In this document: positions 7,595 through 25,012 of the stretch, one piece after another
How positions within the stretch are numbered: the stretch's first letter is position 1
Layout: the number at the start of each line of letters is the position of its first letter
Assembly (NCBI GenBank): GCA_016840085.1
Contig: JAEOTA010000085.1
Span: 1 to 64,000 of the forward strand
DNA: 64,000 nt
Origin: Promethearchaeota archaeon
Lineage (GTDB): Archaea > Asgardarchaeota > Lokiarchaeia > Sigyniarchaeales > SOKP01
Reading direction: 5' to 3'
Program-made: the position numbers and the translations under genes
The notes under the pieces: generated by a model
The model's database searches: none
What the model was told of the DNA's origin: nothing
What the model saw: only the letters and a program-made list of their open reading frames with translations

Positions 7595-9442
7595 CTAGAA
7601 TCCCCCGTAGCTTTGTCCTCTTATATTATTTAAAATAGTATCATCTAATTCGCTTAAACGCTTAGTGGATTTGACTCTATACTTAATACTCAAGAACTTG
7701 TTTATGAGTTTGTATTTAAAATTATTCCTCCTCATATCTCTTCGGACATTTCTTGGAATTTTATTAGGGTACTCAGTAATATATGGGATATCATCATCTT
7801 TTATGGATTTATCCTTATTATAAAGATATCGCTTAGCAGGTTCCTCTCTTGGTTTTCGATCATATGGATCAAATAGGTGTTTCATCTTGAATTTCACTGC
7901 ACTCTGTTCAACACTTCTACTAATCAATTCCATCATTGGAGTAGGTTCACCAATAAGATCCCTAAATCTTTCGTCTGCTTTCTGAACTCTCCTCCTCACA
8001 ACGCCATTAGGAGCAAAACGATCCATCGCTCCTAACATACTCCATGATACCACGGAACCCTTTTTGAATAATTGGGATCTATTCTCACGCATCAAAGGAT
8101 TATCAGAATTCATGCAGAATTCATAACCATTAAGTGTAACTTCAAGCCTTCTAAGAAGTGATGGTCCCCATGTTCGGTATAACAAATCGTACCCATATTC
8201 CGTTAGATTCAATGTTTCATGGGTTTCTAAAGAGATGTTTTTCTGAGCTCCACTCCAGAAATGTACATCTTCCCAAGGCACTTCCATTACTCTTCCTTGA
8301 TCCTTGAGCTTTCGCCATAATTCAGTTCCGGGGAATGGAGATAGGCGAGTTAATTGTTCATAAGTAGGTTTACAAGCAATAAAGTAGTTAAGATCCTCGT
8401 ACATGTTTGCGTGGCTATGATAATCCCAACCACATATCCATGCACCAAGTGTACGAATGCCCATTGAATGCAGCTTATGAAAAACTTCTCGGGCATCTGC
8501 CTCTTTAACTTTTCTGTAGCCATGTTCCCCTGCAAATTTAGATTCTACACCAATGAAGACCGCTCCTATTCCTGTTTCAGGAATGGCATCCCATCCATAA
8601 TTACTAGCGAAATGCCAGATAAAATCTACTGAACCAAAACCAGTCCAGTCAACGTTTTCCACGAGATCCATATTTTTTTCCCATTTTTCCTTGGTTTTCA
8701 CCAGCCATCGTGGGTGACGGAAATGGTCTTCCTCGATTACGAAGATTGAAGAAAGTTGTTTAAAGTGTTTACGGTAAAGTTCGACATGGTTAACAAAATC
8801 TTCTGGTGAAAGCAGTTCAATTCGCTTCTTACCAAACATTTCTGTTGTTGAACAAAAATCACATCCTCCAGGACATCCCAATCCTGTTACAAGAAATCCA
8901 ATACCACCTCTGGGATACTTATTAAGAAATGGTGGCGCTCCACCACACTTTGGCATTAATTTTTGCTGAATAGGACGATTTGTGTCCTCTCTTAGTAATT
9001 CACGAAGAAATTTTACACCCTCGCCTAGAACTACATGATCTACATATTTTTTTTTAGTTTCTTCATCATATTGTGCCGCAAAAGCCTGAGCTCCATAACT
9101 CCCTAAGAGAATTTTCGTTTCTGGAGATTTTTCTCGTATATATTTACACATTTTCATGACCATATCAAGATGTACAGGAAAAGCACTGATCCCAATAATG
9201 GCATACTCTTTATCTACTTCTTCAATGAAGTTATTCCAGCGCGGATACTCAAGTAAAATTGCTGGAATATTAACATTTTGTGCTAAAATATGATTTGCAT
9301 AACAATGAGTGTGAGAAACAAGTGTAAAGATATCATCTCCATGAGTAAATCGTTGACCAGTCGCATCTGTAAGTGAATCGTTCGCAGGTAATGAAGGGTA
9401 AGGGTAGCAAGGGGTTGTTAATAAAATTCGATCTGTAATCAT
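7595..9442 (-). CDS. cobalamin-binding radical SAM protein
   Basis: N-terminal B12-binding-like domain (IIGIS...LLGSYG...VVLGEG), GCPGGCDFC, IGVES, PFPGTEL. Confidence 0.85.
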   Translation of the reverse strand: MITDRILLTTPCYPYPSLPANDSLTDATGQRFTHGDDIFTLVSHTHCYANHILAQNVNIPAILLEYPRWNNFIEEVDKEYAIIGISAFPVHLDMVMKMCKYIREKSPETKILLGSYGAQAFAAQYDEETKKKYVDHVVLGEGVKFLRELLREDTNRPIQQKLMPKCGGAPPFLNKYPRGGIGFLVTGLGCPGGCDFCSTTEMFGKKRIELLSPEDFVNHVELYRKHFKQLSSIFVIEEDHFRHPRWLVKTKEKWEKNMDLVENVDWTGFGSVDFIWHFASNYGWDAIPETGIGAVFIGVESKFAGEHGYRKVKEADAREVFHKLHSMGIRTLGAWICGWDYHSHANMYEDLNYFIACKPTYEQLTRLSPFPGTELWRKLKDQGRVMEVPWEDVHFWSGAQKNISLETHETLNLTEYGYDLLYRTWGPSLLRRLEVTLNGYEFCMNSDNPLMRENRSQLFKKGSVVSWSMLGAMDRFAPNGVVRRRVQKADERFRDLIGEPTPMMELISRSVEQSAVKFKMKHLFDPYDRKPREEPAKRYLYNKDKSIKDDDIPYITEYPNKIPRNVRRDMRRNNFKYKLINKFLSIKYRVKSTKRLSELDDTILNNIRGQSYGGF

Positions 9443-24199: not shown

Positions 24200-24436
24200 A
24201 TGATTGATTCTGAAATTAAACACTTGAAAAGAAGAAAAATAAAAAGAATTTTATTATGGATTCTAGTCGGAGCAATCGTTGTAACATTTATAGTAGCAAT
24301 AGTATTAACGATTTTGAGTTTTGAAGTAGATACCCAGTGACCTTCAGCATGTATGATAACTGGTTCTTTATTACAAAAAGAAATATGCCCGTTCGAGAAT
24401 TTAAATTTTATAAAAAATATCATAAAAGGTACATAA
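24200..24436 (+). CDS. putative 78-aa single-pass membrane selenoprotein (UGA47=Sec)
   Basis: MIDSEIKHLKRRKIKRILLWILVGAIVVTFIVAIVLTILSFEVDTQ-TGA(24338-40)-PSACMITGSLLQKEICPFENLNFIKNIIKGT-TAA; SECIS-like hairpin begins 10 nt after the stop. Confidence 0.7.
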
Positions 24437-24445
24437 TTCGATTAT

Positions 24446-24514
24446 AACCGAATTGAATGACTTTTGCAAAGAAAAGATAGTTGTAAAAGGACTACCCCTG
24501 CAAGGGTTTCGGTT
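24446..24514 (+). promoter_or_regulatory. eukaryote-type SECIS element
   Basis: Helix I AACCGAA/TTCGGTT; AUGA(24457-60)...GA(24490-91) core; helix II CTTTTGCAA/TTGTAAAAG; apical AAAA 11 nt after AUGA. Confidence 0.75.
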
Positions 24515-24559: not shown

Positions 24560-25012
24560 TTAGAATCCCCAAGAGATTTTTTGTATTGGATTCATTTGCA
24601 TAATACGTCGTGTATTTGGATCTGTTGGGCTTAAATCTTCTTGTGCCCACGTTTTATATTGAGGATATTTTTCAATAAGTTGTTTCCACCCTTTCATGAA
24701 TCGTACTGAATGATCTTGGTAATTCAAAATAGAAATTGTCACATTGATAAGAATTCCTCGTAGCCTTAACCATTTTCCATTATTTTCAACATATTCATCA
24801 AATAACAATGAAACTCTACTTCCTTTATTAATATTTAGCAAGCGTTTGCTAGTGTTACGAAGTGTCGTAAAAAAAGTATTACCATCAAAACTATAGCAGA
24901 TTGGTATTATATGTGGAAAGCTATTAGTAGGATCTAGTGTTCAAATCCGTGCTACACGGGATCTGTTTAAAAATTCATTCTCTGATTTAGAGAGTAAAAA
25001 ATCATTTAACAC
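24560..25012 (-). pseudogene. PPOX-class (pyridoxamine 5'-phosphate oxidase family, F420-type) protein with one in-frame TGA; pseudogene or recoded
   Basis: Frame of ORF 24560-24841 extends upstream as FLNRSRVARI-TGA(24941-43)-TLDPTNSFPHIIPICY...SKRLLNI...RVSLLFDEY; start GTG 25012 or TTG 25024. Confidence 0.7.

Follow-up and report, generated by a model that had tools for sequence, protein, structure and literature searches.

A predicted single-helix membrane selenoprotein family with its own lokiSECIS in Lokiarchaeia

Does a short reading frame that gene callers cut at a UGA codon in a Lokiarchaeia genome encode a membrane selenoprotein, and if so, does it belong to a recognizable family? 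We addressed this question with a window of 64,000 nt (positions 1 to 64,000 of contig JAEOTA010000085.1, assembly GCA_016840085.1), in which a sequence-only reading had proposed a single-pass membrane selenoprotein followed by a eukaryote-type SECIS. The ORF runs on the forward strand from the ATG at 24200 to the TAA at 24434-24436 and comprises 78 codons, with a single in-frame TGA at codon 47 (24338-24340). A basic segment, KRRKIKR (residues 10-16, 24227-24247), predicted to be cytoplasmic, is followed by an uncharged stretch of ~24 residues (residues ~17-40, 24248-24319; best 21-residue Kyte-Doolittle mean 2.97, family median of the best window 2.99), which we predict to be a transmembrane (TM) helix. 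After a 7-residue linker the frame reads DTQ-U-PSAC, with the putative partner thiol Cys51 at 24350-24352 and a later Cys63 within a 31-residue tail (24341-24433).

Ten bases after the stop codon begins a hairpin (24446-24514, forward strand) whose minimum free energy fold (-16.3 kcal/mol) is the one drawn in the sequence-only reading. Helix I is formed by 24446-24452 and 24508-24514, AUGA lies at 24457-24460, the 9-bp helix II at 24461-24469/24481-24489 encloses an 11-nt A-rich loop with AAAA at 24472-24475 and ending in AG, and GA is found at 24490-24491. A 3'-side mini-hairpin with a GCA-type loop (24494-24497/24504-24507) makes a three-way junction. All the elements by which the lokiSECIS was described, namely AUGA, a 9-bp stem, an 11-nt loop starting with adenines and ending in G, and GA (PMC4989117), are present. 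Considered alone, however, the hairpin is not unusual, as its stability is ordinary against shuffled sequences (z -1.2 to -1.5) and an Rfam scan of the locus gave no SECIS family match. The case therefore rests on comparison. Only 9 elements with AUGA, a perfect 9-bp stem, GA and 27-31 nt spacing occur in the 4.68-Mb genome. We next built a covariance model only from 20 SECIS elements behind mvhD and prx genes. This model returned 8 hits under E 0.05 in the genome: its five training elements, vhuU, the present hairpin and one element behind a paralog of this gene. The present hairpin ranked fourth at 55.2 bits (E 2.2e-8; E-values are rough), within the range of the training elements. A reciprocal model built from the family's own elements recovered the genome's known type I elements. 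Across 43 distinct family elements, 90% of pair cells were standard pairs and 14 of 19 pairs showed two-sided changes, above all slid registers and with 0/500 shuffles as high, although relatedness was not controlled and inflates this result. The mini-hairpin, which the sequence-only reading had noted as an extra, is not special to this gene: it is shared with hdrA-mvhD, prx, vhuU and selD SECIS elements, sometimes with the stem flipped. It is thus a feature of this lineage and may be an under-described three-way junction; we found no mention of it in what we read of the two SECIS papers.

We then asked whether the genome carries the machinery for selenocysteine (Sec) incorporation. SepSecS scored over its cut-off, an EFSec-like factor scored 235.6 bits, just under the cut-off of 242, and a full-length PSTK-like kinase was found at E 5.5e-40, also under cut-off. 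Two SelD genes, a Prx-like gene, four hdrA-mvhD pairs and vhuU contain in-frame UGA. A tRNA-Sec with a UCA anticodon, a G discriminator and two insertions (D-arm and T-loop regions) lies between EFSec and SepSecS on contig C32 of this genome (C32:24374-24530; ~7875-8031 of the extracted locus L280); it was missed by ARAGORN and scored 25.9 bits, below Rfam gathering. The reciprocal model also detected a SECIS (45.6 bits) at 107582-107654 of contig C19, behind an ORF with S-G-C-U-U, that is, two adjacent UGAs, which is not on the published Asgard list; a similar G-C-U-U ORF (locus L211) was seen in genome G050. SECIS-model hits in genomes G044, G050 and G060 (loci L209, L210, L214, L217 and L218) lie behind UGA ORFs with G-U-C-G, G-U-G-G and similar motifs that look HesB-like, a family not among the seven Asgard families of PMC11227280.

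To determine whether the UGA is conserved, we searched for homologs. A search of representatives gave only one 46-aa fragment, and databases hold relatives as fragments ending at the UGA. A profile found matches in 42 of 54 genomes of the genus and further ones across the class, whereas weak phylum-wide hits were mostly N-terminal TM helices of long ORFs and were rejected. On inspection, 89 loci, this one included, in 9 genera and 2 families have a TGA shortly after the TM helix and a lokiSECIS 34-122 nt downstream; one more (in G045) has the TGA but no SECIS by our scan. The inspected hits without a TGA were generic TM matches, two Gly-tailed peptides without U or SECIS, one duplication-disrupted copy and a set of Cys-rich proteins considered below. 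Short TM peptides with a poly-Gly tail and no U, Cys or SECIS (loci L169 and L238, genomes G119 and G121), in genomes that also have a TGA-containing family hit, are possible Sec-less paralogs. The family was not found with our profiles in five Sec-machinery genomes of family f2 and genus g18, three of them single-contig, although a diverged copy could be missed; it is probably not essential to the class.

An alternative is that the UGA is an ordinary stop of a 46-aa membrane peptide and the hairpin an orphan or a stability element. The ordinary stability of the hairpin, the poorly conserved tail, the annotated 46-aa products and the absence of RNA or protein evidence are in line with this view, but the comparative data make it very unlikely. 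TGA is kept in 89 loci at about 20-30% protein identity, although it is 13.6% of long-ORF stops in this genome and TAA is 71%, and U is the only invariant column in alignments of 42 and 50 members. The frame after the UGA stays open for 24 codons in 33/40 members, against 2 and 15 in the other frames (13% expected). Over 19 disjoint close pairs, dN/dS was 0.35 before the UGA and 0.48 after it, against 0.67 and 1.33 in the other frames, indicating weak purifying selection, although kin are not independent. Each of the other strong SECIS hits in the genome lies behind a UGA-containing ORF. The tail is thus translated but loosely constrained: it varies from 1 to 61 residues, is 1-2 residues long in 8/79 members, and 10 of 43 tails are amphipathic at p<=0.05. 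These results indicate, with a probability of about 93% and in the absence of experimental data, that this is a protein-coding gene whose UGA47 is a Sec codon served by its own 3'-UTR lokiSECIS, 116 nt downstream.

The homologs also corrected some details of the sequence-only reading, which had drawn attention to UxxxC and a further Cys. UxxxC is a minority form (6/79), U-x-C is found in 46/79, and the later Cys is not conserved, so that these are features of this subclade and not of the family. A Cys lies within 5 residues of U in 70/79 members (+2 in 46, -2 in 10, +4 in 6), Gly precedes U in 53/79 and Gly-Gly in 38/79. Two subfamilies exist, a Gly-rich one with U-x-C and an acidic one with C-x(1-3)-U. 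The latter includes the paralog on contig C85 (locus L040, from 105436 onward), which has C-K-I-U, a SECIS at 105696-105771 that is one base short in helix II, and a long read-through tail. The present gene is an atypical member, with no Gly linker and with U-x-x-x-C.

We further examined gene context, since co-transcription with the two upstream membrane genes had been suggested. This is not a family feature: the upstream neighbour seen here occurs in 4 of 44 loci, those of the 4 closest genomes, while 23 loci have another membrane gene upstream and at least 9 have a divergent gene. Downstream genes vary and are often convergent. The gene behaves as a stand-alone unit in a loosely kept neighbourhood of MFS, DUF89-like and PPOX-class genes (named by inspection), not as an operon subunit or leader peptide. 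The convergent PPOX-class (pyridoxamine-oxidase-like) gene at 24560-~25000 on the reverse strand has an in-frame TGA (24941-24943) where homologs have Ala or Ser, probably a nonsense mutation. A sigma-70 promoter scan is uninformative for an archaeon.

More Lys/Arg before than after the helix were found in 80/80 sequences, in agreement with the positive-inside argument of the sequence-only reading. We strongly infer, although from charge counts only, that the helix inserts N-in/C-out, so that Sec sits 5-31 residues (median 11; 7 here) beyond the outer membrane face on a flexible, usually Gly-rich or acidic linker. With less certainty, we infer that Sec and the nearby Cys form a reversible selenenyl-sulfide. 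As the protein has no folded catalytic domain, the best mechanism, at about 45%, is a membrane-tethered redox arm that is oxidised by outer-face disulfides, polysulfide or peroxide and re-reduced by an unidentified membrane partner, the tail being a dispensable surface-lying helix that also keeps the UGA far enough from the SECIS. Flexible Sec arms with a Cys partner are known in SelS (PMC3628699), and most selenoprotein motifs are redox motifs (PMC13188914). On the other hand, 9/79 members lack any nearby Cys, a Cys spacing from -4 to +4 is loose for a catalytic dithiol, and no conserved partner gene lies next to it. Nor was a clean Cys-for-Sec orthologue, the usual sign of a catalytic Sec, found among the candidates inspected: one (L198) is disrupted by an internal duplication, and an apparent Trp variant (P0014) is a TGA read as W.

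The dominance of U-x-C and C-x-U spacings also allows a different, though unlikely, reading in which Sec and Cys are a soft-metal ligand (Cu, Hg, Zn, As) at the cell surface, serving as a scavenger or hand-off site for a transporter. U-x-C occurs in the SO_0444 Cu/Zn efflux selenoprotein (PMC13188914), and the acidic paralog subfamily has Asp-rich linkers. In another family of the phylum (f18; loci L223-L228), tandem pairs of small single-pass proteins with a basic N-flank, a Cys/Ser-rich outer segment and an amphipathic end lie upstream of a gene that looks like a HerA-type ATPase and share this layout. Their homology is unproven, however, because of a low-complexity profile and different gene context. 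No metal transporter was found among conserved neighbours, and one or two ligands per chain is weak unless the protein oligomerises.

The Gly-Gly preceding U in many members raises two other possibilities. The gene could be a selenium gauge or buffer, in which readthrough gives a Sec form, termination gives a short form ending mostly in Gly-Gly, and the ratio controls stability or a membrane partner; it may also titrate tRNA-Sec/EFSec. Tail sequence and length barely matter, and truncated and full forms of SelS are discussed as a switch (PMC3628699). However, the present member ends in DTQ before the UGA, the predicted C-out topology hides the end from cytosolic ligases, and no co-oriented downstream gene is conserved, making this reading improbable. 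Still less likely is a cleavable leader releasing a selenopeptide, as in bacterial selenobacteriocin, which is suggested by the basic N-region plus hydrophobic H-region, the Gly-Gly and the SGUG motif of selenobacteriocin (PMC13188914). No radical SAM, peptidase or exporter is conserved nearby, no conserved signal-peptidase site is visible in the alignments, and some members would release only 2-3 residues after Gly-Gly. Small bacterial selenopeptides (KCU-star NF033934, selenobacteriocin TIGR04081, SaoC; PMC13188914) are likewise tiny, carry CU or GUG motifs and are truncated by gene callers. They use a bacterial in-frame SECIS, no dedicated neighbour gene is found here, and none was among the best NCBIfam matches for 50 members.

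We finally compared the family with known selenoproteins. It shares the recoding signal, close to the stop codon, and the machinery with lokiarchaeal HdrA-VhuD/FrhD, VhuU/FrhA and PrxL (PMC4989117, PMC11227280), but the protein has no relation to those soluble oxidoreductases. Pfam and NCBIfam gave only sub-cut-off hydrophobic matches, and the family matched none of SelD, FrhA/VhuU, HdrA, FrhD, Prx-like, AhpF-N, DsbA-like, HesB-like, FdhA or FmdB. It is missing from the published archaeal lists we could read, namely the seven Asgard families of PMC11227280, a 2024 survey that searched only previously known families and could not find this one, and the eleven archaeal families of a 2026 review (PMC13188914). 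The link to eukaryotic SELENOK/SELENOS raised in the sequence-only reading is architectural only. These are also small and single-pass, with Sec on a flexible Gly-containing C-terminal segment without a thioredoxin fold, and some family members end U-G-stop or U-x-G-stop. Nevertheless, PF10961 and PF06936 hit no family locus in 54 genomes of the genus. In SELENOK/SELENOS, Sec lies at position 2-3 from the C-terminus, in the cytosol after a long Gly/Pro-rich disordered domain (PMC9344019, PMC3628699), whereas here 31 residues follow Sec (usually 15-40 in the family), the predicted topology is opposite, and there is no p97-binding or coiled-coil region. That the family is an archaeal forerunner or deep relative of SELENOK/SELENOS, too diverged and low in complexity for profiles to link, with the Gly-Gly end exposed when Sec insertion fails, is not excluded but very unlikely.

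Taken together, this is a selenoprotein family, undescribed in the lists we could read, with a new architecture for archaea that uses a known recoding system, and it shows that SECIS-first searching uncovers families that homology searching misses. The short gene, with natural UGA-to-AUGA distances of 34-122 nt and tails of 1-61 residues, is a compact reporter for the question of how the lokiSECIS works without SBP2, including the role of the 3' mini-hairpin. The archaeal families listed in the 2026 review are named for soluble-type oxidoreductase or Sec-pathway domains, and the Asgard survey found no eukaryote-type family because it searched known families only. The present family adds a widespread, domain-less, membrane-anchored selenoprotein, with Sec predicted outside the cell, in the archaeal group closest to eukaryotes.
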